A stretch of 64,000 nucleotides of DNA from Bdellovibrionia bacterium (GTDB lineage Bacteria > Bdellovibrionota > Bdellovibrionia > Bdellovibrionales > UBA1609): the NCBI GenBank assembly GCA_030432925.1, contig JAUILT010000001.1, positions 13,468-77,467 of the forward strand, written 5' to 3'. The translations under genes were made by a program, and so were the position numbers. Under the pieces are notes generated by a model. That model searched no databases and had not been told where the DNA came from. It was given only the letters and a program-made list of their open reading frames with translations. Shown in pieces: positions 1 to 56,752 of the stretch (position 1 is the stretch's first letter; the number at the start of each line of letters is the position of its first letter).

Positions 1-601
1 AAAGAGAGAAACTCGAAGAACAAAGAGAATGACTTCAGTCAAAAAAAATCTAGAACTAGTCAAAAAACAACTCAATGACGCCAATCAGAATATGCGCCTA
101 GATCACTTGACCAAAGCCTTTAACAGAAAAAGCTTTGATGAACAGATTGAACAACAAATTCGGTTCTTTCAGGTAGCTCAGACACCTGCGACCCTTATTT
201 CAATGGACATTGATCACTTCAAAAAATTCAATGATACCTATGGGCACGCTATTGGCGACTTTATTCTAGTGGAGTGTGTGAAACTTCTCAAAGAATGTTT
301 TTCAAACGAAGGCGAATTTGTTGCCCGCACAGGGGGAGAGGAGTTTTGCGTAATCCTTCCTGATACAGGGTTGGATCAAGCCGTCAACAAAGCCAATAGC
401 ACTATCGAAAGAATTCGTAAAGAAACATGGCTAGAAGACGGTCACAAACTAAAGTTCACCATGTCCATGGGAATTGCTCAATTGATGGAGACCGAGTCTT
501 CAAATGATTGGATCAAACGAGCTGACGAGGCCCTTTATGCTTCAAAAAGTGGTGGTCGAAATAGGTATACCATTGCGTCTCATATCAAAACAGCTGCCTG
601 A
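1..601 (+). CDS. GGDEF-domain diguanylate cyclase, C-terminal part (5' end lies outside the window)
   Basis: The reading frame is open from nt 2 to the first ATG at 29. GGDEF core motifs are present: 'DIDHFKKFNDTYGHAIGD', 'RTGGEEFCVILPD', 'ADEALYASKSGGRNRY'. Confidence 0.85.
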   Translation, partial: KRETRRTKRMTSVKKNLELVKKQLNDANQNMRLDHLTKAFNRKSFDEQIEQQIRFFQVAQTPATLISMDIDHFKKFNDTYGHAIGDFILVECVKLLKECFSNEGEFVARTGGEEFCVILPDTGLDQAVNKANSTIERIRKETWLEDGHKLKFTMSMGIAQLMETESSNDWIKRADEALYASKSGGRNRYTIASHIKTAA

Positions 602-8313: not shown

Positions 8314-9207
8314 ATGACAATAAAAAACCTTGTTCTACTACTATCACTGGCTCTACCAACCATCACCTGGGCGGCAAATCTGGACGATGTATTAAAAGTT
8401 GATAACGGTCAAGTACTGCTGGAAAATAACGATGCCGGAGAAAAGGTTTATGGCAATGAGGTTTCCGAAGATCTCTTTCAGCCCACACATCACAAGTATT
8501 TTCACTATAAATTAAGTTTTGAAAACGTCACCAAAGTGATCACTCCAGAGGTTGAGGATGCTTTTGATCTATTTATTTTTGCCAATGTTTCCTATCAGGC
8601 CTATGGCAGCCCCAATGATGAAATCCCCTCGCAACGGATGAGAATTTACCGAAAGCCCACCTCCAGCACACGTATTTTTAACCGCGGCATGAGAGGCAAT
8701 ATTCTGCCTCATAACCCGGTCTCAGCTTCAGCCTTTGGAACTTCAAGTCACAAACCAGCTTTAGCAGGGTTGCCCGGAGAAATCCCTATTTCTTCGGGAG
8801 CTGGACACCTTGGAAGTTCTTATGTTGATACTTTTAGTGGTGTTTTTCGGATGAATCACAAAAAGTCTCGAACTCATCGCCATCAGGATGGAATGATTCA
8901 CTCTCTGTATGTGGACATCAAGTATCCTTGGGGGAAGTCCTCAGGAATCGCGGTCCATGGAACACCCAAAAATAATTACAAATATCTTGGCCAACAGGCC
9001 TCCCACGGCTGTATTCGTGTAAAACAAACAGTATCCCTTCCATTGTATGAGTATGCTATGGGACGCAATCTCTATGACTCCAATCTTTTAGATTTTTCTC
9101 GTAGCCAAAGACTTCCTACCGGACCTTTAAGAAATCCACGCCCCGGTCAGCGGGTTTTAATGGTTTTCTTTTATGGTTATAATGGCAATCAAGGGCTTGA
9201 TTTTTAA
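8314..9207 (+). CDS. secreted L,D-transpeptidase (YkuD domain)
   Basis: Signal peptide with a GAGGGGA RBS. Catalytic motif 'HGTPKNNYKYLGQQASHGCIRV'. Confidence 0.75.
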   Translation: MTIKNLVLLLSLALPTITWAANLDDVLKVDNGQVLLENNDAGEKVYGNEVSEDLFQPTHHKYFHYKLSFENVTKVITPEVEDAFDLFIFANVSYQAYGSPNDEIPSQRMRIYRKPTSSTRIFNRGMRGNILPHNPVSASAFGTSSHKPALAGLPGEIPISSGAGHLGSSYVDTFSGVFRMNHKKSRTHRHQDGMIHSLYVDIKYPWGKSSGIAVHGTPKNNYKYLGQQASHGCIRVKQTVSLPLYEYAMGRNLYDSNLLDFSRSQRLPTGPLRNPRPGQRVLMVFFYGYNGNQGLDF

Positions 9208-9640
9208 TAAAAGGACACTCCCTTTGGATTTATTGCGACTGTTCTTCACATCATGGAGTTTTTTTGACCGCCCTGGCGACAGTTTCCGAACCCGGCTGAC
9301 TCTCTACCAAGATGCAACTCCAATTCTGGAGCAGAACTGGCCGGAAACTGTGAGCTTCAAGTGGTGGCAACTGATATTTAACCCGGCAGGAAATGACTGG
9401 CACTACTCTAAACAACTGGAGTCCTGTGCCGCAATTTTGTCTCAAAAATATCCTTCAGAGGACTTTCTCCAATCTCGTGAGTTTAAACAGTATCTCAATC
9501 ACATCCTTAAATATGTAGGGCCCAAAAGTTTCGATACCATATCAGTACTTCTGGAAGTAAAAAAATATTCTGCGAACGCTGATTTTCAAAGGCTCGTGTT
9601 CCTCACTTTACCCACCACAAATAAGAAGACCTTCATATGA
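9173..9640 (+). CDS. hypothetical protein
   Basis: ATG start; overlaps the upstream gene by 35 nt and the downstream gene by ATGA. No recognisable motif. Confidence 0.4.
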   Translation: MVIMAIKGLIFNKRTLPLDLLRLFFTSWSFFDRPGDSFRTRLTLYQDATPILEQNWPETVSFKWWQLIFNPAGNDWHYSKQLESCAAILSQKYPSEDFLQSREFKQYLNHILKYVGPKSFDTISVLLEVKKYSANADFQRLVFLTLPTTNKKTFI

Positions 9641-10314
9641 GTTGGGAGTGGACCAGCATGGTGACAGCCAAGCTTCTAGGACTAGTATTCTTCACCTGTT
9701 CCCTTGAGTATTTTTCTTTGCCCCATCTAGCCCACAGACTCTTCCCTGCCTGGTCCTACCTACTCAGTGCCATTGTTCTTTGGTTCATTCCTATACCCCT
9801 TTTGATCTGGCTACCTGTAATCTCTGTGATCGCCTCGTCCTGTTTTTTTACACGCCGGTTCAATGGAGGAGCGGATTCCGTCATGTTTTGGGTAGGACTG
9901 CTCCTGGCATTAACTTACACCACTGCTGACTCAAAGACCCATTTTTCAGTTATTTCTGTTATGACCATTGGCTTTGTAGGAGCCTTTGCCTACTTTATGG
10001 CCGGAGTTAGTAAACTACTATCTCCTCAATGGCGCACTGGAGAAACTTTTCAATGGAGCCTATCACAGACTTGTTTTTCTGAAACTTTCCCCATACTCAG
10101 GCAGCACAGTCGTTGCTTATCCCTAGGGATCTTGCTCTGGCAGTTAAGTTTCCCTCTGGCTCTTACTCACAGATATCTAGCTATTTTTTACATTGTCTCT
10201 GGTTTGGTATTTCATATTGTCAATGCTCGAGTTCTTGGGCTCAGTAGATTTACCTTAGCCTTTTCCTGTTTTTATCCGGCAATTTTATTTTTATCCCATT
10301 CCGGTGACCACTGA
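9637..10314 (+). CDS. hypothetical polytopic membrane protein
   Basis: ATGA-coupled to the preceding ORF. It has 5-6 hydrophobic helices. Confidence 0.55.
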   Translation: MSWEWTSMVTAKLLGLVFFTCSLEYFSLPHLAHRLFPAWSYLLSAIVLWFIPIPLLIWLPVISVIASSCFFTRRFNGGADSVMFWVGLLLALTYTTADSKTHFSVISVMTIGFVGAFAYFMAGVSKLLSPQWRTGETFQWSLSQTCFSETFPILRQHSRCLSLGILLWQLSFPLALTHRYLAIFYIVSGLVFHIVNARVLGLSRFTLAFSCFYPAILFLSHSGDH

Positions 10315-10347
10315 TGGCTTTACATCTACCAGATGTGGTCCAATCAC

Positions 10348-13014
10348 CTAAAGTAGACAGCGCTTGACCTCTTCAATAGTAGTCAATCCATTGAGAACCA
10401 TACGAAGGCCAAATGCAAGAATAGTTTCGAAGCCATCTTTCTCGGCAATTTCCTTTAAATGATCCCACTCCTCTTTTTGAGTCAGTGCAAATTTGAAATC
10501 CTCTGTAGAACGCCAGATTTCAAATACCGGAATTCGGTTATTATAACCAGATCCATTACAGCGTACACAGCCTCTCCCCTCATGAACTGTCCCTGGTGGC
10601 GTCACCCCCTTCAGATTTTGCAAAAAGAAGGCTTTTTCAAATTCCGTAGTGGAACGTTCATGGGTACAACTGGCACAAATAGATCGTAAAAGTCTCTGAC
10701 TCACACACCCCAACATGGCGGATGCAATAGTGACAGGACTGATACCAAACTCTGACAGCCGGCTAATGGTATCTAAAGACGAATTGGTATGCATAGTAGA
10801 AAGAACAATATGCCCGGTAATAGCTGCCTCCAAAACAATATGAGCTGATTCCTCATCTCTAATTTCTCCCACCATAATCACATCTGGGTCTTGCCTTAGA
10901 AAGCTCTTCAGTGCAGCAGGAAAGGTCAAGCCAGCCTTGGGATGTAACTGTACCTGATTGAGTCCAACAATTTCCTTTTCTACTGGATCCTCCACAGTCA
11001 TGATATTCACACCCACTTGATTGATCTCATTGAGTAATGAATAAAGTGTTGTAGATTTTCCCGACCCTGTGGGTCCAGTTACCAAAAAGAGTCCTTGTTT
11101 AGCCTGTGAAACCTCTTTCAATACACTGATCACCCGCTTGTCGGGGGCCAACATATTCAATGGCACAATCCCTCCACTAGAGCGAATCACCCTAAGCACT
11201 GATTTTTCTCCTTTTTTTGTCGGAATAGTTGAAACCCTGGCCAAAAAGTCCAAGCCTTCCAACTTCACTTTGAGTTGCCCATCTTGTGGAGACTTATCAT
11301 TAGAAATATCCATCTCTGAAAGAATCTTAATCCGGTTGATCAACTCTCGATGAAACTCCATAGGCAAAGATTCTGAGCGCTCCTGAAGAACCCCATCCAC
11401 TCGAAAACGAATGGAAACACTCTCCTCACCCGGCTCAAAGTGAATATCGCTGGCTCGATTTTGCAAGGACTCCAAAAAAATCTTGTCTAACTCCTGAACA
11501 GGATCCACTTTTCCTTTAGTTTTGATATGAGTGATTTTAGTCGTTTCCCCTTCGGGCTGTTTGATGTATTCAGGGATTTTATTCATCCAGAGGTGGAACT
11601 GCTGCTGAGAGATCATCTGCAAAGACACCCGATAACCAGAAAGATACCTAGAAATCAGGGTATAAATTTCTTCACTTTCAGGGTTTACCAGACCCAATAC
11701 CAACTCATTGTCTTCACAAAGAACCGGTATCACCTTGTGACTTTTCATCACTGACATAGGAATCAAATCAGCAATGCCATCGAAGTTCACTTTGGACTCA
11801 TCTTCAAAGTACTTTAAACCAATTTGATTGTTTTTACTATGAAGACGTTTTGCCAGATCCTGAGCCAAGGGGAGCAAAAAGTTAGGAGCCTTCATCAGCT
11901 CTTGGAAAATTTTAAAGTCCAAAGCCCGCACTATGGATGGTCCAATTGACTTGGCTAAATGTTTATGAGCTGTTTTGTTCAAAAGAGACAGCTCACTGAA
12001 GCCCTCTCCCCGCTCCAATGCCACAACATGCGTGTATGCTTTGGTATTTTTCAAGGGATGAGAGATTTCAATTTTTCCCTGTTCCACAATAAAATAATGA
12101 CTGCTGGGCTGACCAACTTGAAATAGCACCTGTCCCGGCTGAAGCTGTATGGGCTTGAAATGAGGGAACAATTGCTTGAGTAGCTTATCTGGCAGGTCGG
12201 TAAATAAGTGATGGGTTTTGATCATGTCCTCAAATGACTGTTCACCGACATCACTCAATGTCTTTTTCTTTTGCTTAGAGTTCACCCCCTCTCCAAGATA
12301 ATAACCTCTAAGTTCCGTAGATGTTTTTTCAAAGTCTGAGTCACCAATTAAAAATACATTGATCACTCCTTTAGGAATTCTTGCGCTAATATTTTCGTAA
12401 AACTGTGGATTGTATGGAGTCTTCAGTGCCACAGTTAACACTCCCGATTCAAATGCCAATGGCAAAGCTTCAAATCGCTTCCACATATTGATGGGCAAAA
12501 TATCAAGAATCTTTTTGTCAACTTTGATACTTTCTGGACGGAAGTACTCCACAAAAACTTTGCTCTCTGCCACTGCATTATTAAGGCTGGCCAGCCGGTG
12601 CACTAGGTTTTTGGCCACCACAGGGTACCGGTTGAGAACTTCCAAAAAACTGGAACCACTCATTCGTAAAAGGTGAGTGTCTTCAGTGGCAAACCCCGAA
12701 GCTGATTTGGTAGTTCTGTTAAGTACAGAAAATTCAGAAAAATGCTGCCCAGCTTTAAGAATAGCCAGCCGATTCACCTGCTTTAATTGTGGAATATAAG
12801 TAACAATCTCAATAGATCCACTTTCGATAATAAATACATCATCGCTCACTTCATTTTGTAAAATCACGGGCTCACCAGAACGCACAAAGACCTCATTGAT
12901 GCGATCAGCAACAAACTGAAGGGCCTGTTCGTTCAGCCCCTGGAATAACTGAGAAGCTTTCAGCAATTCCATATATTTGACGCCCTTAGAATGGACGATT
13001 TTTGGTGCACCCAT
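10348..13014 (-). CDS. GspE/PilB-family secretion ATPase with two N-terminal cyclic-nucleotide-binding domains
   Basis: Walker A GPTGSGKSTT, Walker B DPDVIMVGEIRD, His box LSTMHTN, and Cys cluster CASC...CVRCNGSGY. Two cNMP-binding-like segments and two T2SSE_N-like segments lie upstream. An alternative start exists at 12972. Confidence 0.85.
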   Translation of the reverse strand: MGAPKIVHSKGVKYMELLKASQLFQGLNEQALQFVADRINEVFVRSGEPVILQNEVSDDVFIIESGSIEIVTYIPQLKQVNRLAILKAGQHFSEFSVLNRTTKSASGFATEDTHLLRMSGSSFLEVLNRYPVVAKNLVHRLASLNNAVAESKVFVEYFRPESIKVDKKILDILPINMWKRFEALPLAFESGVLTVALKTPYNPQFYENISARIPKGVINVFLIGDSDFEKTSTELRGYYLGEGVNSKQKKKTLSDVGEQSFEDMIKTHHLFTDLPDKLLKQLFPHFKPIQLQPGQVLFQVGQPSSHYFIVEQGKIEISHPLKNTKAYTHVVALERGEGFSELSLLNKTAHKHLAKSIGPSIVRALDFKIFQELMKAPNFLLPLAQDLAKRLHSKNNQIGLKYFEDESKVNFDGIADLIPMSVMKSHKVIPVLCEDNELVLGLVNPESEEIYTLISRYLSGYRVSLQMISQQQFHLWMNKIPEYIKQPEGETTKITHIKTKGKVDPVQELDKIFLESLQNRASDIHFEPGEESVSIRFRVDGVLQERSESLPMEFHRELINRIKILSEMDISNDKSPQDGQLKVKLEGLDFLARVSTIPTKKGEKSVLRVIRSSGGIVPLNMLAPDKRVISVLKEVSQAKQGLFLVTGPTGSGKSTTLYSLLNEINQVGVNIMTVEDPVEKEIVGLNQVQLHPKAGLTFPAALKSFLRQDPDVIMVGEIRDEESAHIVLEAAITGHIVLSTMHTNSSLDTISRLSEFGISPVTIASAMLGCVSQRLLRSICASCTHERSTTEFEKAFFLQNLKGVTPPGTVHEGRGCVRCNGSGYNNRIPVFEIWRSTEDFKFALTQKEEWDHLKEIAEKDGFETILAFGLRMVLNGLTTIEEVKRCLL

Positions 13015-13182
13015 ACTCTGTGCGTATCGGGTTTATAAATAACCTACATTATCAAGAGCTATTAGAACTGGCGAAAGGTCGCAAGACCCCTCTCCCCTTG
13101 TTACAAACCTGACAGAGACTGAAACTCCAGAAGACCCACCAATCCAGTGGACAAACGTCCAGACATCCCGTACTCTTTGCCG

Positions 13183-15006
13183 ATGAACCTACCTATTCGA
13201 AATATCGCCATTATTGCCCATGTGGATCACGGAAAAACCACCCTTGTTGACCACCTTCTCAAACAAAGTGGTACCTTTCGCGAAAACGCTGATGTTGAAG
13301 AACGTTTTATGGACTCCATGGATCTTGAAAAAGAGCGAGGCATCACCATTGCCGCAAAAAATGCCTCTTTTATTTACAACAATATTAAAGTGAATATCGT
13401 AGACACTCCAGGCCATAGTGACTTTGGCGGTGAAGTAGAACGAATCCTAGATATGGTGGACGGTGCAATCCTTCTCGTGGATGCCAGTGAAGGGCCATTG
13501 CCGCAAACCCGGTTTGTTTTGAAAAAAGCATTAGACAAAAATTTGAAAATCCTTGTTTGTATCAACAAAATTGATCGGCCAGATGCCCGCGCTGACGAAG
13601 TGATCAATGAAATCTTTGACTTGTTTGTGGATTTAGATGCCAATGAAGAACAAGCTGACTTCGATATTATCTATGCCATTGCCAAAGAAGGTGTGGCACG
13701 CACCGAAATAGACGGACCAGAAACAGACTTCAAAGTCCTATTTGAGTGGATCACCAATAATTTCCCCCCTCCCCCTGCCGAGCCCGATGAGCCACTTTCA
13801 TTGCTGGTTTCCAATATCGACTATGATGATTATGTGGGGCGATTAGCCATTGGGCGCATTCGATCTGGTGTCATTAAAGTCGGCGATGAACTCACGCAGC
13901 ACACTGAGGACGGTAAAAAACGACTGAAGGTATCAGCTTTATTCAGTTTTGAATCCAGCTCAAAAATCAAAGTTCTGGAGTTAAAGGCCGGGGACATTGG
14001 CGTGATTGCAGGTTTTGAAACTGTTCATATTGGTGATTCTATCACAGCACCCAACCAGGAACCCTTACCTAGAATTCGAGTCGATGAGCCAACAGTGGGA
14101 GTTTTACTTTCTGTCAATGACTCACCTTTTGCAGGACTTGAGGGATCCCAGGTGACTTCACGAAAAATCAAGGAGCGCTTAGAAAAAGAACTGCTTCATA
14201 ATGTAGCTCTCCGAGTGGAGCCAACCAGCACACCTGAAACCTTTAAAGTCGTAGGACGTGGAGAGCTTCAGCTATCTATTTTGTTTGAACAAATGCGCAG
14301 AGAAGGCTTTGAAATGCTGATTTCAAAACCCCAAGTGGAGGTTCAGACCATTGACGGTGAAAAAAAAGAGCCCATGGAAATTGCCGTGGTGGATGTCGAT
14401 GAAGCTTACGTAGGTGCTGTCACACAAAAGCTGGGTGAGCGCAAAGGTGTTCTGATGAATATGACGAACAAGGGCTATGGTCGAGCCCGAGCAGAGTTTC
14501 GGATCCCCTCTCGTGGATTGATTGGATACCGCTCGGAGTTTCTCACTGACACTCGTGGAACAGGCTTACTAAGCACGTACTTTGATGGCTGGGATAACTT
14601 TAAAGGCCCCTTAAAAGGCCGCAATACAGGGGCGATTATTGCCGACAGAAAAGGCGTCGCCACTCCCTACGCTCTCTGGCAACTTGAAGATCGTGGTCGT
14701 CTTTTTGTCACTGGCGGAACCAATGTCTATATGGGTATGGTTGTGGGTGAAGCCAATAAGGGAATCAACCTAGATGTGAATGTCTGTAAAGAGAAGAAAC
14801 TCTCCAACGTGCGTGCTTCTGGAAGTGACGAGGCTGTAAAGCTATCTCCTATCAAACCTATGACTCTGGAGGAAGCTCTGGAGTGGATTTCTGATCATGA
14901 GTTAATTGAAATCACTCCAGAAAATATCCGTATTCGTTGTAAAGAAATGGATCCCAACAAAAGAAAATCTGCCGAGAAAAAAGCAGCAGCTTCAGGCGCT
15001 CACTGA
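13183..15006 (+). CDS. typA: translational GTPase TypA/BipA
   Basis: 'IRNIAIIAHVDHGKTTLVD', 'DTPGHSDFGGEVER', 'NKIDR'. The ATG at 13183 gives the canonical N-terminus; the track starts at a GTG at 13147. Confidence 0.95.
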   Translation: MNLPIRNIAIIAHVDHGKTTLVDHLLKQSGTFRENADVEERFMDSMDLEKERGITIAAKNASFIYNNIKVNIVDTPGHSDFGGEVERILDMVDGAILLVDASEGPLPQTRFVLKKALDKNLKILVCINKIDRPDARADEVINEIFDLFVDLDANEEQADFDIIYAIAKEGVARTEIDGPETDFKVLFEWITNNFPPPPAEPDEPLSLLVSNIDYDDYVGRLAIGRIRSGVIKVGDELTQHTEDGKKRLKVSALFSFESSSKIKVLELKAGDIGVIAGFETVHIGDSITAPNQEPLPRIRVDEPTVGVLLSVNDSPFAGLEGSQVTSRKIKERLEKELLHNVALRVEPTSTPETFKVVGRGELQLSILFEQMRREGFEMLISKPQVEVQTIDGEKKEPMEIAVVDVDEAYVGAVTQKLGERKGVLMNMTNKGYGRARAEFRIPSRGLIGYRSEFLTDTRGTGLLSTYFDGWDNFKGPLKGRNTGAIIADRKGVATPYALWQLEDRGRLFVTGGTNVYMGMVVGEANKGINLDVNVCKEKKLSNVRASGSDEAVKLSPIKPMTLEEALEWISDHELIEITPENIRIRCKEMDPNKRKSAEKKAAASGAH

Positions 15007-15338
15007 TTTTTCTTTTTCATCCCTTTCATTTTATCACGCATAGCTTTTCTTTTGCCTTTCCATGCCATTCGATGCTCTTTACCAGCTTTGCGAGTGGCTT
15101 TTAGGGCTTCTCTTTGAGATTTGCACTTTTCCTTTGATATGTCAGAGTTGACTTTAAGGCAGTCAGCCAGTGCTTTATGCTGGACGGACAACGTATTAAA
15201 GTGATCTGCCATTTTCATATGAGCATCGGCATTCATTTCGGCCATTTCACCTTTTATTTTCATTTTATCACCATGATGATCGGCTTGAGCCGCCCAACCA
15301 AAACAAAAAACCAGTGCTATTACTATAATTGATTTCAT
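15000..15338 (-). CDS. small secreted His/Met/Lys-rich protein (possible metal-binding)
   Basis: Strong RBS GGAGGA, signal peptide MKSIIVIALVFCFGWAAQA, then 'DHHGDKMKIKGEMAEMNADAHMKMADH'. Its 3' end overlaps the typA stop by 7 nt (convergent). Confidence 0.6.
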   Translation of the reverse strand: MKSIIVIALVFCFGWAAQADHHGDKMKIKGEMAEMNADAHMKMADHFNTLSVQHKALADCLKVNSDISKEKCKSQREALKATRKAGKEHRMAWKGKRKAMRDKMKGMKKKNQ

Positions 15339-15426
15339 AGTTCCTCCATAAAAGAATTCAATAGATCATTGAATACCTCAATTATTCCTCACTTCTGAAA
15401 GAAAGCAACTCAATAAATTGTGGAAT

Positions 15427-15461
15427 TCAAAAGAGCCTCCCCCCCCCCCGTGGAAGAGGCT
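15427..15461 (-). terminator. possible terminator hairpin with a C11/G11 loop
   Basis: Stem agcctc / gaggct (15434-15439 / 15456-15461) encloses the C11 run at 15439-15449. Only a short T-run follows on the minus strand. Confidence 0.35.
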
Positions 15462-15484
15462 TCTTAATTCTTACAAATTCTTCT

Positions 15485-15832
15485 TTATTTTGGTGCCCCA
15501 GGAAGGTCCGATGGGAAAGAAATCAAGTTGGATCGGTCTTTTTTAAAGTTCAATCCCTTATGCTCCATACCAAGCTCTTCCACTGAAATCAGACTGTATA
15601 TTGAAAGATGTAGGCTTTTGACGTTTTCAAAACGCTTTTTTAACTGCTCTTCTGTAGGCCGAACTACTAAGGTCTCTGTATGAAAAATAAATCCTGATAG
15701 CTTTACAAATCCCAACCCCAGGCTAGAGTCTTCAATACTTTGTACTTTTAAAGCCACCACTTCACCATTTTGCGGGTCACGATAACTGACCAGATATAAT
15801 GTGCCTTTTTCTCCCGTTTTAGAACTTGCCAT
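15485..15832 (-). CDS. hypothetical protein (possibly DUF1820-like)
   Basis: ATG start, 115 aa. 'LYLVSYRDPQNGEVVALKVQSIEDSSLGLGFVKLSGFIF' resembles DUF1820 as I remember it; this is unverified. Confidence 0.5.
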   Translation of the reverse strand: MASSKTGEKGTLYLVSYRDPQNGEVVALKVQSIEDSSLGLGFVKLSGFIFHTETLVVRPTEEQLKKRFENVKSLHLSIYSLISVEELGMEHKGLNFKKDRSNLISFPSDLPGAPK

Positions 15833-15946
15833 GCCCCGGACTTAATCATAAAAGACAGTCCTTGTCATGGAATCTCAACTTTTATTGTTCATTTTCAAAA
15901 AACTGTCAAAATTGTGGACATAACCCGGGTCGGTACAACTGCAAAA

Positions 15947-16612
15947 TTAAGAATAAATAATAAGGGCTATCATAACGACAGCGACAATAACTGCAACAGA
16001 GACACCGACAAGTACAGGTACAGGTAGTGACTTTTTTTCACTCGAGTCTTCATTTTTATCCACATAATCTGTGGATAACCATTTTTTTCTATCCATATTC
16101 TGTACAGAAGGCCTGGATGCTTGAGTCTGTAGGACCGTCATAGGTCTCGATTGGGAGGCTGGCTTTGAACTCTTTGGCTTAGGAACTTTTTTACGAATAG
16201 GCTCATTAGAATCTGACTCTCCCCCCTCCTCAGAAAGGTTTTTCTTAAACTCTCTCTCTAGCCGAAAGGCTCCCTCAAAAGGTGTTCGATATTTATTTTT
16301 TTTCTCACCTGTTTGGATATTGTTGTACTGGCTAGTTTGAAAATATTCTCTAACATCCTTCACATCATACTGAAAGACCGACTGCAATTGCCCAATTGTT
16401 TCTACTGAGACGGCACCGTAACCACAAATACTTTCTAAAACAAGGACAATGCGATCTAGCTGATCCTCGGAGTTAAGATGAGAAAAGTCAGGGTAATCAC
16501 TCATAAGATGGCGCACCACCATCAAATCTCGTTTTTGAATATCACGAATGCGACGCTGCCCTGAAGATTCTTCTTTACCTGCTTTTTCCTCTTTGGCTGC
16601 GAAATCAGACAT
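15947..16612 (-). CDS. hypothetical protein with C-terminal membrane anchor
   Basis: RBS GGAGGGGG. The middle is acidic and Ser-rich, and the C-terminal helix is 'LPVPVLVGVSVAVIVAVVMIALIIY'. Confidence 0.55.
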   Translation of the reverse strand: MSDFAAKEEKAGKEESSGQRRIRDIQKRDLMVVRHLMSDYPDFSHLNSEDQLDRIVLVLESICGYGAVSVETIGQLQSVFQYDVKDVREYFQTSQYNNIQTGEKKNKYRTPFEGAFRLEREFKKNLSEEGGESDSNEPIRKKVPKPKSSKPASQSRPMTVLQTQASRPSVQNMDRKKWLSTDYVDKNEDSSEKKSLPVPVLVGVSVAVIVAVVMIALIIYS

Positions 16613-16703
16613 GTGCCCCCTCCAGCCTCCATTTTAAATGAAGAAATAGCGAATGCCTACACCTTGTGTTTCTAGGACTGGCCTTAAGGGTGGAAGAAAG
16701 CTC

Positions 16704-17522
16704 TTAAAAGCCAGCAGAAAGCTTGAGCCCGTAACGATCAGCATCCAGTTGGTTAGAGTATTCTACCCCAATCTTAAAAAATAGAAGGTTCAGGTTAGCC
16801 CCCAATAGAAACTGGGCCCCATCTACCTTTTTACTCGCACTTTCTCCAGCTGTTACAGCTGTATCAAAAATAGTGCCTGAACCAGAGTATTTTAAATTTC
16901 CATCTCCCATAATAAAACCCAACCCAGCATAGGGCTCGACAATAATAAAACTTTTACTGGCAAGAACCTGTAAACCCATGATCGTATTCTCAAAAGAAGC
17001 GTCGGCATCAGACCCTGCAGTCACTGCATCGGGAATTTTAAAATCCATATTTGTTTTCGTGTAATGCCCTTTGATGGCTAGAGACAGTGGCAAAAATGAT
17101 AACAGTGTTTCCGTAGGAGTCCACATTAATGCCAAAGACTTATTAGAAAACTTAAAATCTTCATCACCAATTTCAGGAATGATCAGAACTTCACCAGTAA
17201 TCCCAAAAGGCACAGTTAAACGCCCCAACAATCCTCCAAAGGGCAGTCCTGATACATCAGAGTTAGGATCCTCTCTCTGAGCAATTTTTTCAATTCTATC
17301 AACCGAAGCCATTCCCACAATAACTCCTACCTCAAAGCCAAAAATAGACCCCATGGTATTAGCACCAGAAATTGATGTATGAGTGAAAGCTGAAGTAAAA
17401 TCACTGACAATATCTTCCATATCTTTCTCAGAAATATTATCAAGAGCCAGGTCCTGGGCTAGTACCGAAGTAGACATCATAAAAATAGAGAGAAAAATCC
17501 AATTTAAAAAAGATATTTTCAT
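16704..17522 (-). CDS. outer-membrane beta-barrel protein (putative)
   Basis: Signal peptide ending ...VLAQ, an alternating beta-strand pattern, and a C-terminal '...YGLKLSAGF' ending in Phe. Confidence 0.6.
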   Translation of the reverse strand: MKISFLNWIFLSIFMMSTSVLAQDLALDNISEKDMEDIVSDFTSAFTHTSISGANTMGSIFGFEVGVIVGMASVDRIEKIAQREDPNSDVSGLPFGGLLGRLTVPFGITGEVLIIPEIGDEDFKFSNKSLALMWTPTETLLSFLPLSLAIKGHYTKTNMDFKIPDAVTAGSDADASFENTIMGLQVLASKSFIIVEPYAGLGFIMGDGNLKYSGSGTIFDTAVTAGESASKKVDGAQFLLGANLNLLFFKIGVEYSNQLDADRYGLKLSAGF

Positions 17523-17550
17523 AGTATGAACCCTTCATTGTAAAGTCTTG

Positions 17551-18354
17551 TTAACGAAACCTACGATTTTTTAGCAATGCGTACATTGCACCCCAAATGA
17601 AAATAAAATACAACCCAGCGATTAAAAATGAGAGACTTTCAGGAAGCTGTGCGCTGCTCCCCTTGTCAGATAGAGTTATTCCCAAATTCAAGATATCTTT
17701 GGGGGACTGAATCAAACTAGCAAACACCCCCAAAGGAAGGTATCCATGAACTTCCATTTTAAAATAGAAACTTAGGCTAAAAGCTACAACAGGCTCTAAA
17801 ATATAGCGGATTCCAAAATAAGCAAAAACTGTAGGAATAGATCGTTGAATAAGTGTAGCCAAAAGCACTCCTACACTTAAAAACCCCAAGCTTCTCATTA
17901 AAAAACCGCTCACTTGCAAGTAAGAAGGCCATTCCATCTCTTGCCCACTCACCCTCCCTGCGAATAGAAAAGAGAGCCCCATAATCATGACAAAGCTAAT
18001 TACCACGAGAAATAGCACCTGGATCAAACGGCCCAATACCACCTGTTCCAGGGATAAGCCATCAATTACATGTTGCTTTAAAGTACCTAAAGAACTATCG
18101 TTACTGATCATCATGATTAAAATTAACGCCAAAAATGGCTCGAAAAACCCAGAAAAATAAAAAATCATTGATAGCGTCTGAGAAAAATTAAAACCACTCA
18201 ACCCTGGCAAACTCACACCCGACATCAATTCCACCAATATACTGGAGCTCACCCAAAGAACCATAAGAAGGCACAAAAAATATCCGATCAAAAAAATCCA
18301 AAAAAATCGAAACCCTCTAAGTCTAAGCCATTCTAACTTCAAAAGAGTCATCAT
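17551..18354 (-). CDS. ABC-2-type transporter permease
   Basis: Six hydrophobic helices. Overlaps the upstream ATPase gene by 4 nt. Confidence 0.7.
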   Translation of the reverse strand: MMTLLKLEWLRLRGFRFFWIFLIGYFLCLLMVLWVSSSILVELMSGVSLPGLSGFNFSQTLSMIFYFSGFFEPFLALILIMMISNDSSLGTLKQHVIDGLSLEQVVLGRLIQVLFLVVISFVMIMGLSFLFAGRVSGQEMEWPSYLQVSGFLMRSLGFLSVGVLLATLIQRSIPTVFAYFGIRYILEPVVAFSLSFYFKMEVHGYLPLGVFASLIQSPKDILNLGITLSDKGSSAQLPESLSFLIAGLYFIFIWGAMYALLKNRRFR

Positions 18355-19244
18355 TGCCTCAAGACCTCCAAGAAGTGCTGCTCTAAACTTTGCTGTCGAG
18401 ATCGAAGCTCAGAAAGAATAATATTTTTATCAAATAAATATCGATTAAGTTCATCACCTCCCAAAGAGTTTTCTGGCACCACTTTTATGAACTCCCCTTC
18501 ATCTACAATCTCTTTGAGACGATGAAAGCTTTTGAGCGCTGCCAAAAGTTCAGCTTTATGAGCTGATTTTAGCTCAAACCAAATATTATGCCCAAGAACC
18601 TCTTCAATGGATCCCATCTGCAGAAGTTTCCCTTTTTTAAGAACGGCTACATGAGTACAAACCTTTTCTACTTCATCCAGGATATGGCTTGCTAGCAAAA
18701 TGGTTTTCTTAGCTTTACGTTGCTCAAGAATTATGTCACGTATTTCAGCAATCCCTTCAGCATCAATACCATTGGTGGGTTCATCTAAAACTAATACCTC
18801 AGGGTCTCCAAGTAGACATGAGGCTATGGCTAAACGCTGTTTCATTCCTAAAGAAAAACTCTCGTAGCGGCTCTTCCGACGTTCGTACAGGCCTGTTTTC
18901 TTAAGTACCCGGTCAATATCAGAAAATGCCACACCTCGAATAGTCGCCGTGATCTGAAGGTTTTGTACAGCATTCAACCAAGGATAAAATCGAGGCGACT
19001 CTAATAATGAACCAATGCGCTTTCTTAATGCAGGTGCATTGCCTGAGGCAAACCAGCTGTAGTAACCCGAGGTAGGCTTCAAAACCCCAAGAGCCATTGC
19101 CAGAGTCGTTGTTTTTCCAGAGCCATTGGGCCCCAAAAGCCCAAAAACCTGCCCTTTAAGTACTTTCAAATTCAAATCCGACACAGCCCACAAAGACTGA
19201 TAGCTTTTACTGAGCTTTTCACAATGAAAAACAGAAGATTCCAT
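18351..19244 (-). CDS. ABC transporter ATP-binding protein
   Basis: Walker A GPNGSGKTT, signature 'FSLGMKQRL', Walker B VLVLDEPTNGID. Confidence 0.9.
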   Translation of the reverse strand: MESSVFHCEKLSKSYQSLWAVSDLNLKVLKGQVFGLLGPNGSGKTTTLAMALGVLKPTSGYYSWFASGNAPALRKRIGSLLESPRFYPWLNAVQNLQITATIRGVAFSDIDRVLKKTGLYERRKSRYESFSLGMKQRLAIASCLLGDPEVLVLDEPTNGIDAEGIAEIRDIILEQRKAKKTILLASHILDEVEKVCTHVAVLKKGKLLQMGSIEEVLGHNIWFELKSAHKAELLAALKSFHRLKEIVDEGEFIKVVPENSLGGDELNRYLFDKNIILSELRSRQQSLEQHFLEVLRQ

Positions 19245-19327
19245 GTCAAAAATTCTCCCACAAGCCCATGAACAATGGAAGAAAAAACCCTCGCCACCTC
19301 AAAGGATTTGAGTTAACTTTTCTTGCA

Positions 19328-21371: not shown

Positions 21372-21854
21372 TCAGGGGGCTTTTCTTAAATGGGCTAAAT
21401 ACGGCTCCCAATCGCTAGGACAATGACTATTACGAGAGTAACTGAACTCCTTACTGGGCAACCACTTGGGTTGAACCGGTCGTTTTTTCAAACGCATCCC
21501 CGCCTGCTCAGGAGTCATATCGCCTTTTTTATTATTGCAAGGACCACAGGCCGCAACCACATTGGTCCATATATGTTGTCCTCCCTTTGAAACTGGGTGC
21601 ACATGATCCACAGTCAAAGCTTTTTCAGGAAACCGATCTCCACAATACTGACAAGTGTGATTATCTCGAAGAAACAAATTTTGCCTAGAGAGCTTAACGA
21701 CAACAGAAGAGAAGTTAGGTCGAATATATTTTCGAAGTCTCAGAACGCTGGGAAGGTGAAAAGCCGCCGAAGCACTTCTCACCTGAACAGAATGAAACTC
21801 CAACACGTCCACTTTGTTTTGCAGCCAGAGAATCATTGCTTTTTGCCAATTCAC
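21372..21854 (-). CDS. HNH endonuclease
   Basis: 'CQYCGDRF...LTVDHVHPVSKGGQHIWTNVVAACGPCNNKKG'. GTG start. Confidence 0.8.
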   Translation of the reverse strand: MNWQKAMILWLQNKVDVLEFHSVQVRSASAAFHLPSVLRLRKYIRPNFSSVVVKLSRQNLFLRDNHTCQYCGDRFPEKALTVDHVHPVSKGGQHIWTNVVAACGPCNNKKGDMTPEQAGMRLKKRPVQPKWLPSKEFSYSRNSHCPSDWEPYLAHLRKAP

Positions 21855-23796: not shown

Positions 23797-24771
23797 TTAC
23801 CTTCCATATAAATAATAAAGCCGCTCTTTATCTACACGACTCAGTTCATCTCGGGAAGGGTGAATAGCCCTGCGTCCTTTGGAACGCATGGTTTTTTGTC
23901 CTTGAAGTTTCGCAAATGCGTTGTCGGGGTAAAGCATAATACTTTCAGAGTCAAATTCAAAGACCGAGCCCGAGTAATTGTGTACCATCTGATCCGGCAT
24001 TTTATTGAACTGAAACAAAAATTGCGGTTGGATATTTTCCCAAAGAATATCAATATAGTTATCTCGATCCTGCCGAGAGTGCTCATGCACAAACCCCAGC
24101 GCATGCATTAATTCGTGCATGACTTCGGTTTTTCCACATTTAGGTGAGATCAACACTGGCTGAGGTCCTCCTGTACGCCCCAGGTGACTTGCACAATGAT
24201 TCTCTATCGCTACAAACACCAAAAAACTTTGATCTCCCTCTTCAGCTGGTACAAAGCGCACAGAGGTATTATCATTAAAATAATCAATGGCCTCTACAAT
24301 AGGTTGAGTGTTGGTGATTTCACCAGTTATCGTATAAGGGATAATATTTGAGGGCCATAACAGAGTTTTCTTGGGTTGAGAAATCCCATTTTCAATACCT
24401 TTTTTATCTGAAGGCACTTGACCCATTAAAATATCTCCTTGAGTAATAGCATACCCACCTTCAATGACTTCAAAGTATACTTGGTTTTTAGGGAGATTGG
24501 AGGGGTATCTATTATCATTTGATTGAGGTTTTTGGAGAGCATTGGGTGCTTCTATTTTGAGTGGTTGGGGAGTATGACTTGGCTCGGCGGGTGCTGACTT
24601 GAATTGGATTGGCTCAGGGGCGTGCAGAGTTTCTTCACCTTCATCATCGATATGTATAACTTTTGTTTTTGGAGCCTCCGAGTGACTTAAAAAATAGATA
24701 GCTCCGCCGCCAACTACAAAAATAGCCATAGCTAACAAAAAGCCCAAAAATTTTTCCACAGCCGGATTCAT
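23797..24771 (-). CDS. astacin-family (M12A) zinc metalloprotease with N-terminal membrane anchor
   Basis: Full astacin signature 'HELMHALGFVHEHSRQDRDNYI' and Met-turn 'SIMLY'. N-terminal helix 'FLGFLLAMAIFVVGGGAIYFL'. Confidence 0.85.
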   Translation of the reverse strand: MNPAVEKFLGFLLAMAIFVVGGGAIYFLSHSEAPKTKVIHIDDEGEETLHAPEPIQFKSAPAEPSHTPQPLKIEAPNALQKPQSNDNRYPSNLPKNQVYFEVIEGGYAITQGDILMGQVPSDKKGIENGISQPKKTLLWPSNIIPYTITGEITNTQPIVEAIDYFNDNTSVRFVPAEEGDQSFLVFVAIENHCASHLGRTGGPQPVLISPKCGKTEVMHELMHALGFVHEHSRQDRDNYIDILWENIQPQFLFQFNKMPDQMVHNYSGSVFEFDSESIMLYPDNAFAKLQGQKTMRSKGRRAIHPSRDELSRVDKERLYYLYGR

Positions 24772-27629: not shown

Positions 27630-29438
27630 CTATCGAAGAAATAGGTGAAAAGAGGGCTCTTTGTCCACAGAGCCCTTCTGGTCAACATTAAACAAGGCAA
27701 TCACCTCAGTAGTAACCCCTGAACGGATATTGAAAACCACTAGGTCTGAATTTTCAATAATCTGGTGCAATCCCCGGCCGGCCCCCCCTTTGTTGATCTG
27801 AAACTTTCCAGCCTCTCCTGTGTAGCAACTCTCCAAGTAATTTAAAATGGTCTCACCTTTAAGGCTCCCATTGGGATCTTGCACCGATACGGCCATCAGC
27901 ATTCCATCCGTAGCGTAACGAAGCTTGGCCTGATGCTCAGGACCTAGTTCTACTTTTGTTTTTCTATCTAAATGATTGTAAATAGCTTTGCCATTTTCAT
28001 CGGTAGGGGCATCATAAATAGCGTTCATTAACAACTCTTCCAAAACTAACCCAGCACGATCTCTATTTGCTCTCCGAATTCCCAGTTTTTCAAAGTACTC
28101 TTCTACGCTGCCAATTAAACTTGCTCGTTGATCACTACTTACAATATCGAGTTCACGAATTTCTACACCCCAAGACAAATATTTATCTGGTCCAAAAATA
28201 TCTTGGCTTGTTAGTTTTGAAACACTAGTTACAATATTCTTCATGGTAAAGGCTCTGTCCTCAGAACTACGAGACACGATATTTGGCATATAAGTCATGC
28301 TCTTTACCTGCTGAAGGTAATTGGGAACACTATCTGCAGTCATCAATACAACTTTAGATGTTGGACTTATTGATGGAACCTTATTGATAAAGTCAAACAT
28401 AGTTTCATCAGCAAAAATAATATCAAATGTAGATTTGGATATTGCCTCTTCAGCTTCTTCAGGGGTTGTTGCAATTTCCAATTGAGCTCCTGTTCCCCCT
28501 AACGCCATTTTTGCCAAAATTTGCTGCTTTTTCTGAGAATCAGCTAACAGGACCTTTTGCTGTTCCATAGCCTGTTCTGCTCGAAAAAGCTCTGTGATTG
28601 GCTCCAATAAACCGATGGTTTCCAGAACTTCGTGACCAGCTAGCTTGACCTCAGCCAATGATTCTTCAGGTACCTCCATCTCAAGAGTATCTAAAGTAAG
28701 CCTTAAAGGAATGAGGTGATCTTTATAAAGCTCTTCCAATTTTTTAAAAGTCATTTTCTTGGTCGAATAAAGCTCTTCTAGTTTTCTATGAGAAGCCAGA
28801 AGTTCCACATTTTGAGTTTCAAGTTTAGAATGTGAATTGATTAAATCTTGGGTTTTTCGATAAAGATCCTGAGTTCTTTGCTCTACCTTCTTTTCTAGTT
28901 TTTCATTAGCAATTTCCAACTCAGCCTTAGTGACCTCTAGCTCTTCATTGATATGTTCAATTTTTTTAGCTTTTTGGTTTGTAGCATGTAACTTATCTAC
29001 TAGGACACTGGCATAGATTTTATAAAGTGTGTGGCGAAGCCTGTCTCGGTCACCTTTACTGAAGTTATTAATATCGTTAATCCCTATACGAAATAACTCA
29101 ACAGAATCTTCCGCACGAATAGTTGCTGAGCAGGCTTTACCCTGAATTACACTCATTTCACCAATTAAATCACCAAAAGTTTCTAATTCAGCGACTTTTC
29201 CATCGTCCACATAGACGCCAATTTTACCTGAGATAATCAAATAAATACTGGAGTTAAACTGCCCTTGCTTTAAAATATCTTCACCGTTTTCAAAACGCAC
29301 CACATTGGTGATTTCAGCAATTTCAAAGAGTAATTCATCTGGAAAGTCTGCAAAGAAACAAACTTCACGCAACCGTTGAGCCATCTGTATGATCACCGGG
29401 CTGTGATTGGAAATTTCAGACTTTTTTGCTGCTCCCAT
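27630..29438 (-). CDS. signalling protein: cNMP-binding domain, coiled coil, receiver-like domain, RsbW/SpoIIAB-like GHKL ATPase domain
   Basis: N-terminal 'FADFPDELLFEIA...GDLIGEMSVIQGKACSATI'. A long heptad region follows, then 'VLLADS...IIFADE...VVLMTAD'. The C-terminus has 'LVLEELLMNAIYDAP' and 'GGAGRGLHQI'. Confidence 0.7.
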   Translation of the reverse strand: MGAAKKSEISNHSPVIIQMAQRLREVCFFADFPDELLFEIAEITNVVRFENGEDILKQGQFNSSIYLIISGKIGVYVDDGKVAELETFGDLIGEMSVIQGKACSATIRAEDSVELFRIGINDINNFSKGDRDRLRHTLYKIYASVLVDKLHATNQKAKKIEHINEELEVTKAELEIANEKLEKKVEQRTQDLYRKTQDLINSHSKLETQNVELLASHRKLEELYSTKKMTFKKLEELYKDHLIPLRLTLDTLEMEVPEESLAEVKLAGHEVLETIGLLEPITELFRAEQAMEQQKVLLADSQKKQQILAKMALGGTGAQLEIATTPEEAEEAISKSTFDIIFADETMFDFINKVPSISPTSKVVLMTADSVPNYLQQVKSMTYMPNIVSRSSEDRAFTMKNIVTSVSKLTSQDIFGPDKYLSWGVEIRELDIVSSDQRASLIGSVEEYFEKLGIRRANRDRAGLVLEELLMNAIYDAPTDENGKAIYNHLDRKTKVELGPEHQAKLRYATDGMLMAVSVQDPNGSLKGETILNYLESCYTGEAGKFQINKGGAGRGLHQIIENSDLVVFNIRSGVTTEVIALFNVDQKGSVDKEPSFHLFLR

Positions 29439-38120: not shown

Positions 38121-39059
38121 CTACTTATCTTTTTTTTTCATAGAGGTCTCATAAACAGACACTCTGTTTCGCCCATAGTCCTTGGCATCATAAAGGGCAT
38201 GATCAGCCCTGCGGACGAGAGCTCGAGCATCCAGCCCTTCACTTCCCTTGGTTACACAAAACCCTATAGAAACAGTGAGTTTCATACTGCTTTTACCGTC
38301 GTCAAAGGTGTGGTTGAGAATATTTTCTCTGAGACGATTACAAAAAATCATTGTCCCCTCTTTATCAGTTTCCGTAAGTACCATTAAAAACTCATCACCT
38401 CCATAACGAGCGGCAAAATCAATCTCTCTCATGGTATTTTTAATAATCTCCCCTGTTTCCTTTAAAACAAAGCTTCCAAATAAGTGGTCATTAGTATCAT
38501 TTACTGATTTAAAGTGATCCATGTCCATCATGATGCAAGAAACATTTCGCCCAAATCGCCTTCCCCTCTTAAGTTCAAAGTCAATGCGGTCATACATGGA
38601 ACGCATATTGTACAACCCTGTGAGGTAATCCAATTCTACCATTTTCTGAAGTTTATCATTGGCCTCCAGAAGATCTCGGTGAAGATTATTAACCCTTAAA
38701 CTGGCTTCAATTCGTGCTAGCATCTCTTCAAAACGAAAGGGTTTTCTAATATAATCATCAGCTCCAGCTCTTAATGCTTGCGCCACAAGAGAAGACTCTC
38801 CTCGGGCAGATATAAAAATCACTGTAGTGTAGTTTTTCTGCCGACGAAGGTCTTCCAACATCTCAAGACCTGTCAACCCTGGCATATCATGATCGGTAAG
38901 AACAATCGTTGGAGAAAAACTATCTACCTTTCTCAAAGCTTCGTCGGCCTGAGAAGCCTTATCCACTACATATCCAGCCTGGACCAAAGCCTCACAGATC
39001 ACCTCAAGAGTATTAGGGTCATCATCTACAACGAGGATTTTTACTTTTTCAGATGCCAT
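38121..39059 (-). CDS. response regulator-diguanylate cyclase (REC-GGDEF, PleD-like)
   Basis: 'KILVVDDDPNTLEV...VLTDHDMPGLTG...RKPF' then 'RYGGDEFLMVL'. The ATG at 39059 (MASEKVKILVVDD) is preferred over the track start at 39107. Confidence 0.85.
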   Translation of the reverse strand: MASEKVKILVVDDDPNTLEVICEALVQAGYVVDKASQADEALRKVDSFSPTIVLTDHDMPGLTGLEMLEDLRRQKNYTTVIFISARGESSLVAQALRAGADDYIRKPFRFEEMLARIEASLRVNNLHRDLLEANDKLQKMVELDYLTGLYNMRSMYDRIDFELKRGRRFGRNVSCIMMDMDHFKSVNDTNDHLFGSFVLKETGEIIKNTMREIDFAARYGGDEFLMVLTETDKEGTMIFCNRLRENILNHTFDDGKSSMKLTVSIGFCVTKGSEGLDARALVRRADHALYDAKDYGRNRVSVYETSMKKKDK

Positions 39060-39179
39060 CTTCTTTATTCTAGGAACTGTCCTAACAAAGAACAAACACC
39101 ATCCCATACCCGCAGCGACAAAAGTCTAGAACCTCATTTGTAAAATAACACTTTTCCTAAGGAATTCCGATAACATACC

Positions 39180-56632: not shown

Positions 56633-56752
56633 ATGTTAATGGATAATTTCAAGATTGCTTTTGTCTCATTGCTCGGTGGTTTTGCTCTTGCTAATTTGCA
56701 TCCAGTAATCGCGATTCAGTTAAACTATAAAAGTCAACGAATGGGGGAATGA
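56633..56752 (+). CDS. possible 39-aa hydrophobic leader peptide ORF
   Basis: It encodes MLMDNFKIAFVSLLGGFALANLHPVIAIQLNYKSQRMGE. Its stop overlaps the ATG of the next gene (ATGA). There is no clear RBS, and it is below the ORF-track size cutoff. Confidence 0.2.
   Translation: MLMDNFKIAFVSLLGGFALANLHPVIAIQLNYKSQRMGE

Follow-up and report, generated by a model that had tools for sequence, protein, structure and literature searches.

A 64,000-nucleotide stretch of contig JAUILT010000001.1 from a Bdellovibrionia bacterium (hereafter the window) encodes, on the minus strand at 10348..13014, an 888-aa protein in which two tandem sensor modules precede the core of an assembly ATPase. From an ATG start, the open reading frame (ORF) runs through a cyclic nucleotide-binding (CNB) domain, an N1 domain, a second CNB domain, a second N1 domain and a GspE/PilB-type ATPase. 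With a probability of roughly 0.6, the protein is an accessory assembly ATPase of the GspE/PilB class, restricted to its lineage, in which, in each of two CNB-N1 modules, a ligand-gated CNB sensor replaces MshEN_N, the half of the MshEN domain that binds cyclic di-GMP (c-di-GMP) in relatives. A preliminary description of the same DNA had reported the ORF and its coordinates. The ORF is real, every peptide cited in that description is present in the translation, and the strand is added here.

Modular N-terminus and ATPase core

Pfam profiles were used to place the domains. With the whole protein as query, T2SSE (PF00437) scores 370.8 bits against a cut-off of 24.9, over residues 508-885 and positions 11-370 of the 370 in the profile, and cNMP_binding (PF00027) and MshEN (PF05157) score 87.3 and 64 bits, each in two stretches. 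Each N-terminal piece was also scanned alone, against gathering cut-offs of 27.5 bits for cNMP_binding and 23.1 bits for PF05157. All five domains stand above the Pfam cut-offs, and the domain order given in the preliminary description is borne out. In the feature list below, scores for the N-terminal pieces are those of the separate scans, pLDDT values are from AlphaFold2 (AF2) models, and counts out of 44 refer to the full-length family members described further on.

10348..13014, minus strand: whole gene, (CNB-N1)2-GspE/PilB-type ATPase, 888 aa, monocistronic
12973-13014, minus strand: residues 1-14, a peptide beginning MGAPK(I/L) ahead of CNB1, conserved in homologs P0003-P0005, P0007, P0008 and P0056; disordered in both AF2 models, pLDDT <50
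12562..12972, minus strand: CNB1, residues 15-151, a β-barrel and a long C-helix (131-151) that runs into N1a; 53.5 bits, Pfam match at residues 42-130, pLDDT 80-92
12697..12741, minus strand: CNB1 cassette FSEFSVLNRTTKSAS, residues 92-106, of canonical length, with Ser93 for Gly and Lys103 for Arg
12295..12552, minus strand: N1a, residues 155-240, an α/β domain of T2SSE_N1/MshEN_C type; PF05157 42.0 bits, match at about residues 155-232
12232..12294, minus strand: inter-module linker, residues 241-261; identity 0.18, pLDDT <50
11827..12231, minus strand: CNB2, residues 262-396, with a C-helix (377-396) leading into N1b; 41.6 bits, Pfam match at about residues 291-376
11953..12000, minus strand: CNB2 cassette FSELSLLNKTAHKHLA, residues 339-354, with His350 at the Arg position
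11560..11817, minus strand: N1b, residues 400-485, of N1/MshEN_C type; PF05157 30.2 bits, match at about residues 421-485
10360..11493, minus strand: secretion-ATPase core (N2 and C-terminal domain), residues 508-885, identified by PF00437 and Foldseek
11047..11076, minus strand: Walker A, GPTGSGKSTT, residues 647-656, with the G, K and T positions kept in 43-44/44
10978-10995, minus strand: Asp box, VEDPVE, residues 674-679
10855..10890, minus strand: Walker B, DPDVIMVGEIRD, residues 709-720
10783-10803, minus strand: His box, LSTMHTN, residues 738-744
10558..10677, minus strand: tetracysteine (zinc) motif, CxxC...CxxC, Cys780/783/816/819

The MshEN domain consists of a four-helix bundle, MshEN_N (residues 1-62), followed by an α/β part, MshEN_C, which is equivalent to T2SSE_N1 (Wang 2016, PMC5013675). 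The c-di-GMP motif of MshEN_N is present in two tandem copies of 24 residues each, with the consensus RLGxx(L/V/I)(L/V/I)xxG(L/V/I)(L/V/I)xxxxLxxxLxxQ (PMC5013675). Neither a strict nor a relaxed match to this motif is found in the protein and 14 homologs, and the protein has no match at 9 of 11 positions. The relaxed pattern, which begins [RKPN]hGxxhhxx[GAS]hh..., detects two motifs in P0019, an unrelated multi-MshEN protein that served as a positive control. The two PF05157 pieces align after the helical part of their relatives, N1a with residues 73-119 of PilF and N1b with residues 90-154 of Geobacter PilB.

The models agree with these alignments. In both AF2 models, N1a and N1b are built as helix-strand-strand-helix-strand-helix, the pattern expected for N1, and what stands ahead of each N1 is a CNB barrel, with no helix bundle. 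The model of the N-terminus has a pLDDT of 81.8 and a pTM of 0.73, and in both models the C-helices abut N1a and N1b. The PF05157 segments are the MshEN_C/N1 half only, and the CNB domain holds the position that MshEN_N usually occupies. Of the duplicated module of cNMP-binding and T2SSE_N domains that had been described previously, the order and the duplication stand, but the pieces labeled T2SSE_N are no more than this N1 half. Two findings, the missing motif and PF05157 matches confined to the C-terminal half, rule out both a c-di-GMP receptor of the MshE type and a complete MshEN domain with an added CNB domain.

The two modules are copies of each other. Module 1 (residues 15-245) and module 2 (262-492) were aligned by hhalign with 99.8 % probability (E 5.9e-29) and 24 % identity over 220 collinear columns, which include the C-helix/'YF' junction. 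The repeated CNB-N1 arrangement therefore arose when a two-domain unit was duplicated in tandem within the protein. Across an alignment of 15 members, mean pairwise identity is 0.59 for the ATPase, 0.56 for CNB1, 0.46 for N1b, 0.42 for N1a, 0.41 for CNB2 and about 0.2 for the linkers, such that CNB1 is constrained nearly as strongly as the catalytic core.

The core itself is a complete secretion ATPase, as had been claimed, with Walker A, Walker B, the His box and the four cysteines all intact. Because the catalytic boxes are kept in 43-44 of the 44 family members and the four cysteines in every one, the protein is predicted to be an active enzyme. Among solved structures, the nearest are Thermus PilF (E 3.4e-91; 913 aa) and the PilB proteins of Geobacter and Myxococcus, followed by GspE; matches of the core to PilF, PilB and GspE in the Protein Data Bank range from E 1e-80 to 1e-91. 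Scores for PilB, PilF and GspE lie at about 270-310 bits, versus about 109 bits for PilT. The features that separate the assembly branch from PilT-type retraction ATPases, a tetracysteine motif and an N1 domain that precedes N2, are both present, and N1b sits immediately before the ATPase, as N1 does in PilB and GspE. The best Foldseek match of the full-length model is 4pht, in which GspL is bound by the N1 domain of GspE, and PilF and PilB come next. The N-terminus matched the tandem CNB domains of PKG and of the regulatory subunits of protein kinase A (PKA-R), at E ~1e-18.

Binding cassettes and candidate ligands

The canonical cassette used for comparison is F-G-E-x-A-x(6)-R-[ST]-A. In Bd1971 from Bdellovibrio bacteriovorus, the cassette FGEMALIDNQNRSA runs from F56 to A69, with Glu58 binding the ribose and Arg67 and Ser68 cradling the phosphate, and a strain with the R67D substitution has c-di-GMP raised as in the deletion strain (PMC6717892). 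The CNB1 cassette, from F92 to A105, is equal in length to that of Bd1971 and retains the Glu and the Ser-Ala pair. In the CNB2 cassette, from F339 to H352, Ser340 replaces Gly and His350 replaces Arg.

The cassettes were surveyed with one hidden Markov model (HMM) per domain, comparing 44 full-length members of the family with a background of 418 CNB domains, taken from 105 proteins outside the family that were among the same matches. The Gly of FGE, present in ~100 % of the background, is found in one family CNB1 domain, the others having Ser (35) or Ala (8); in CNB2 it is kept in 21/44, though not in this protein, with Ser in 15 and other residues in 8. The ribose Glu is in place in 44/44 CNB1 domains (Glu94) and 34/44 CNB2 domains (Glu341), compared to 92 % of the background. 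At the position of the phosphate Arg, occupied by Arg in 67 % of the background, CNB1 has Lys in 22 members, His in 17, Arg in 4 and Thr in 1, and CNB2 has His in 32 of 44 and Arg in none. In the background, Lys does not rank among the six commonest residues at this position (the others at 3 % or less each). Conservation of the CNB1 cassette extends to Ser96 (42/44), Ser106 (43/44) and Ala109 (43/44). In short, the cassette of the family is derived, and its CNB1 version is strongly conserved.

A second CNB protein is encoded in the window at 27630-29438 on the minus strand. It is 602 aa long, matches cNMP_binding with 49.4 bits at residues 47-126 and is coiled-coil-like in its remainder, with no domain assigned to the C-terminal region. 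Its cassette, IGEMSVIQGKACSAT, has the Gly and the Glu and carries Cys at the Arg position, by which it is predicted to be another non-canonical CNB sensor of the same genome.

The preliminary description had suggested that cAMP or cGMP gates the motor through the doubled sensor. As stated, this is unsupported: the CNB folds are real and the ribose Glu is in place in both, but the phosphate Arg has become Lys103 and His350, and the Gly of FGE is Ser in both domains. Since neither cassette has the canonical Arg and Gly, classical high-affinity binding of cAMP or cGMP is doubtful. A motor gated by cyclic mononucleotides, with both CNB domains as genuine cAMP/cGMP receptors, is somewhat improbable, although it has several points in its favor. 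Both domains pass PF00027, the cassette has the canonical length with its ribose Glu mostly retained, Ser104/Ala105/Ser106 fit R-[ST]-A-[ST], Lys103 retains a positive charge and 4 of the 44 CNB1 domains have the Arg itself. In addition, Bdellovibrio uses cAMP, Bd1971 being a cAMP-activated EAL enzyme (PMC6717892), and four adenylate cyclases are annotated in strain HD100 (PMC8846402). On the other side, the Arg is missing from 40/44 CNB1 and 44/44 CNB2 domains and the Gly from 43/44 CNB1 domains, against a background in which Gly is nearly universal, Arg predominates and Lys is rare, and no class III cyclase family is found among the window ORFs of at least 150 aa. The R209K substitution in PKA RIα is a classical mutation that cripples cAMP binding, and it counts against such gating here. 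The likeness of the Bd1971 R67D strain to the deletion strain is also consistent with loss of function (PMC6717892).

Given that the derived cassette is so strongly conserved in CNB1, its pocket is argued to be functional but of different specificity or affinity, and the signal read by the altered sensors, as judged from their sequences, is probably not ordinary cAMP or cGMP. A specific version of the favored explanation is that the CNB domains sense another ligand, such as a nucleoside, a 2',3'-cNMP, c-di-GMP, 3',3'-cGAMP (cyclic GMP-AMP) or a metabolite of the prey, with the Ser/Lys(His) cassette adapted to it; this is possible and is put forward tentatively. The non-canonical cassette is under strong purifying selection, and the structural neighbors of the N-terminus include the trypanosome 'cAMP-independent' PKA-R with guanosine or inosine (6hyq, 6hyi, 6flo) and a reversion mutant that contains T318R (6h4g). 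CRP-like Clp proteins bind c-di-GMP via a CNB domain (PMC10333796), two papers describe cGAMP as a product of Bdellovibrio (PMC9140294, PMC10333796), and the cassette of Bdellovibrio Bd2879 also is without the Arg/Ser cradle (PMC12750041). The Cys at the Arg position of the 602-aa protein and a GGDEF gene beside one homolog (in L002, below) point the same way. Yet Lys and His would still allow a cNMP to bind weakly, and the trypanosome PKA-R has more of its cassette residues replaced than does the (CNB-N1)2-ATPase family. A motor particular to the Bdellovibrionota, with its CNB pocket re-tuned away from cAMP and cGMP toward, for example, a metabolite derived from the prey, a nucleoside or cGAMP, is unlikely.

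The CNB domains could instead be pseudo-receptors, that is, ligand-free scaffolds for oligomerization or partner binding, with any regulation coming from partner proteins. The poor conservation and degenerate cassette of CNB2 (Glu in 34/44, variable flanks) fit such a role, and the operon of the most distant branch of the family, described below, suggests control at the level of proteins. Nowhere in the N-terminus is conservation higher than in the CNB1 cassette residues that line the pocket (Glu94, Ser96 and Ser106), which would be unexpected if the pocket were empty. Scaffolds are quite unlikely.

Distribution, genomic context and proposed role

A word-indexed search found 15 full-length homologs with 41-100 % identity and an identical Pfam set in 15/15, one of which is labeled 'Bdellovibrionales bacterium'. 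The names of the homologs in their sources are generic ('PilB', 'GspE/PulE/PilB-like', 'CRP-like...', 'TadA'). When a profile of the N-terminal 505 residues was run exhaustively against 1.84 billion cluster representatives, 331 matches had E < 1e-30. From the best 150 of these and the 15 word-indexed homologs, domain HMMs identified at least 44 full-length proteins of (CNB-N1)2-ATPase architecture, which are 868-928 aa long; the remaining retrieved proteins are multi-CNB proteins or fragments. Four single-module (CNB-N1-ATPase) candidates among the best 150 (P0089, P0093, P0095, P0153) start in mid-domain and look like truncated ORFs. With 44 independent full-length sequences showing one and the same architecture, an artefact of assembly or annotation is ruled out. 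The CNB2-like profile also retrieves giant metagenomic proteins of 2651-3779 aa with 12-16 tandem CNB domains (P0023, P0032, P0035 and others).

The family appears to be confined to uncultured Bdellovibrionota as far as the scans reach. A second word-indexed search with a diverse N-terminal profile (A3), seeking named or cultured members, returned already-known proteins only. When one genome of each GTDB species was scanned with sequence patterns, nine loci came up, every one of them in metagenome-assembled genomes (MAGs) of Bdellovibrionota (Bdellovibrionales, Bacteriovoracaceae and Pseudobdellovibrionaceae); the patterns were family-specific, and distant members, for example in cultured strains, may escape them.

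In the window, the gene below the ATPase gene is convergent, in a group of YkuD L,D-transpeptidase and two ORFs of unknown function (8314-10314, plus strand), the second of which has a visibly hydrophobic translation. The gene above, typA/bipA (13147-15006, plus strand), is divergent. The ATPase gene is therefore monocistronic, and these neighbors match the membrane protein operon and typA named previously. In two homologs the annotation begins at the internal Met15 instead, but the upstream ATG is supported as the start because the N-terminal MGAPK is kept in several homologs. A promoter and terminator scan of 10150-13250 found sites no more frequent than in shuffled sequences.

The absence of adjacent pilin, platform and secretin genes, also noted in the preliminary description, extends through the 64-kb window. 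Searches by tblastn with the PilC, PilT, PilB, PilS and PilR proteins of L002, a homolog-bearing contig, matched only the ATPase gene itself and generic two-component genes in the window, with no PilC, PilT or second PilB. The prepilin motif G-F-T-L-I-E has no match in the six frames of the window, and no pilus or secretion Pfam family is found among the window ORFs of at least 150 aa.

Eight genomic contexts of homologs were compared. L001, whose homolog is 67 % identical, shows synteny to the window in typA, YkuD, asparaginase and MarC, and in L003, L004, L005 and two contigs from JGI the neighbors are unrelated. L002 is the only one of the eight to give a positional hint to type IVa pili. 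At 9314-19317, the gene for homolog P0011 (43 % identity) is convergent with hexapep-GGDEF-pilR-pilS-pilC-pilT-pilB, where hexapep is a hexapeptide-repeat gene and the GGDEF protein is 819 aa long. As the pilB cluster lies beside it, P0011 is an extra paralog that co-exists with a canonical PilB. The hexapep neighbor of L002 also is present in L014, where the contig ends. In the most distant branch (homolog P0065; L015 9561-13094 and L016 5243-8776), the gene is in an apparent Hpt-ATPase-REC operon on one strand: an Hpt gene lies 77 nt upstream of it, and 16 nt downstream comes a gene for a single-domain response regulator. This arrangement suggests a phosphorelay input in that branch.

These contexts bear on whether the protein drives a filament or secretion machine at all. 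It might be a stand-alone signaling or remodeling ATPase that has departed from pilus and type II secretion system (T2SS) machines: the gene is an orphan and monocistronic in 7/8 contexts, the scores fall under the PilB and GspE equivalog cut-offs, and MshEN-family proteins without machine roles are known, such as PA3740 and FrgA (Wang 2016, PMC5013675). Against this, N2 and the C-terminal domain are retained in full, no catalytic box is missing, the zinc-binding Cys4 typical of assembly ATPases is in place, two N1 domains are kept when it is N1 that docks GspE to GspL in 4pht, and in one lineage a type IVa pilus cluster is next to the gene. Departure from these machines is very unlikely.

In the explanation that is favored, of an accessory assembly motor, the regulatory N-terminus would follow the plan of multi-MshEN ATPases such as Thermus PilF and the clostridial (MshEN)2-T2SSE proteins, but in both tandem modules the four-helix, c-di-GMP-binding MshEN_N would have been swapped for a CNB sensor and N1/MshEN_C kept. 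The enzyme is presumed to be a hexamer, as are its relatives. A small ligand of phosphate or nucleoside type may enter the CNB barrel, chiefly that of CNB1 and perhaps that of CNB2, and shift the cassette helix and the long C-helix that is fused directly to N1. The N1 domains would then be re-oriented, which could control docking to a platform of the PilM/GspL/PilC type encoded elsewhere in the genome, or how active the ATPase ring is. The protein might thus act as an accessory, signal-gated extension motor for a type IV pilus or T2SS machine used in trans.

Several points weigh against this explanation. Within ~10 kb, seven of the eight contexts are devoid of pilus and secretion genes, and neither they nor the window point to a partner machine. 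The protein scores 425.4 bits with the NCBIfam PilB equivalog (TIGR02538; cut-off 675.65) and 406 bits with the GspE equivalog (TIGR02533; cut-off 630.25); because it is below both, it is a separate branch of the assembly-ATPase class and is assigned to neither machine type. The ATPase part of the AF2 model is moderately confident (pLDDT ~50-85), from a shallow alignment. CNB2 is much less constrained than CNB1 and may be a pseudo-sensor. The ligand class is inferred, as is allostery via the C-helix, which is argued by analogy to other CNB proteins such as Bd1971.

Other genes of the window were noted as well. Two diguanylate-cyclase (GGDEF) genes, a stand-alone 190-aa ORF (29-601, plus strand) and a REC-GGDEF gene (38121-39107, minus strand), indicate that the organism has c-di-GMP signaling, although its ATPase no longer carries the MshEN_N site. 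Within the 64 kb there are also three genes for subtilases (S8) and one for an astacin (M12A) metalloprotease (1822-2976, 23797-24771, 53422-54930, 56749-57663), a density of protease genes that fits a predatory Bdellovibrionota genome. A gene for a HAMP histidine kinase of 698 aa is overlapped at its 3' end by a REC-HisKA-HATPase hybrid (446 aa, TTG start), and the two are a two-component pair (43584-46969, minus strand). An integrase-core (rve_3) transposase-like ORF (61251-62066, plus strand) and a stand-alone HNH endonuclease ORF (21372-21854, minus strand) are possible remnants of mobile elements, with no relation to the ATPase gene.

Relation to known systems

The protein shares with the c-di-GMP-gated assembly ATPases MshE from Vibrio cholerae and PA14_29490 from P. 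aeruginosa (MshEN-T2SSE, PDB 5HTL) a core of the GspE/PilB class, the N1/MshEN_C domain and the concept of a second-messenger input in cis. In MshE, c-di-GMP is bound via the two 24-residue motifs of MshEN_N, whereas here a CNB domain is found instead and the module is doubled. Repeated N-terminal modules before a single ATPase core are known from PilF of Thermus thermophilus ((MshEN)3-T2SSE, 6f8l), which is the best solved sequence match and of similar length (913 versus 888 aa), and from Cthe_1107 of Clostridium thermocellum ((MshEN)2-T2SSE). Their repeats are complete MshEN domains rather than CNB-N1 units. Binding of c-di-GMP was measured for the middle domain of a Deinococcus PilB of the (MshEN)3 type (Wang 2016, PMC5013675). 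PilF is the pilus assembly motor of its hosts, in contrast to the orphan paralog described here, whose homolog in L002 is accompanied by a canonical PilB.

Fusions of further sensory domains to this ATPase family have been catalogued, including GAF-MshEN-T2SSE (Glov_1971), REC-MshEN-T2SSE (Gmet_3473), MshEN-T2SSE-cNMPbind (Desulfotalea DP2226) and (MshEN)2-4-T2SSE (Wang 2016, Suppl. Table 4). In the catalogued proteins with added sensors, the sensor is joined to a complete MshEN domain and the cNMP-binding domain is C-terminal, whereas here the CNB domain replaces MshEN_N, is N-terminal and is duplicated. Given that such fusions, a C-terminal cNMP-binding domain among them, are already on record, an input in cis other than c-di-GMP is less new than the preliminary description implied. 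The (CNB-N1)2-T2SSE architecture is missing from that table, and literature searches found no paper that describes it: none combines T2SSE with cNMP_binding, and queries for MshEN with cNMP or PilB with CNB gave nothing on the architecture. The family is small and, as far as these searches reach, not a previously characterized one. What is new is the duplicated, N-terminal CNB domain in place of MshEN_N and its conserved cassette without Arg and Gly; the fusion of a sensor in cis is itself familiar.

Two comparisons concern the CNB domains. Bd1971, a CNB-EAL phosphodiesterase for c-di-GMP that is activated by cAMP or cGMP, comes from the same phylum and also has a CNB domain joined to its output via the C-helix, with allostery through the cassette and that helix. 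Its cassette is the canonical FGEMALIDNQNRSA and its output is an EAL domain, in contrast to FSEFSVLNRTTKSA (with Lys), FSELSLLNKTAHKH (with His) and an ATPase output in the present protein. The trypanosomatid PKA regulatory subunits (6flo, 6hyq, 6hyi), found as Foldseek neighbors, have tandem CNB domains with a cassette without Arg, and they are a precedent for CNB domains of this kind that sense nucleosides instead of cAMP. Unlike the present protein, they are eukaryotic kinase regulators; homology is limited to the CNB fold, the substitutions are different, and here an N1 domain lies between the CNB domains.

The second-messenger input of assembly ATPases is almost always c-di-GMP via MshEN, and in this family the same slot is filled twice by another fold, which makes it a concrete case of the replacement of a sensor module in a molecular motor. 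For now, its practical value is limited, as every member comes from an uncultured MAG. The family is a candidate for a new ligand specificity of CNB domains in predators, where prey entry requires pili and where cAMP, c-di-GMP and cGAMP signaling are active. If the CNB pocket has indeed been re-tuned to a ligand other than cAMP or cGMP, the predators would gain a chemically gated extension motor that takes over the type IV pilus machine at a given stage of the attack.

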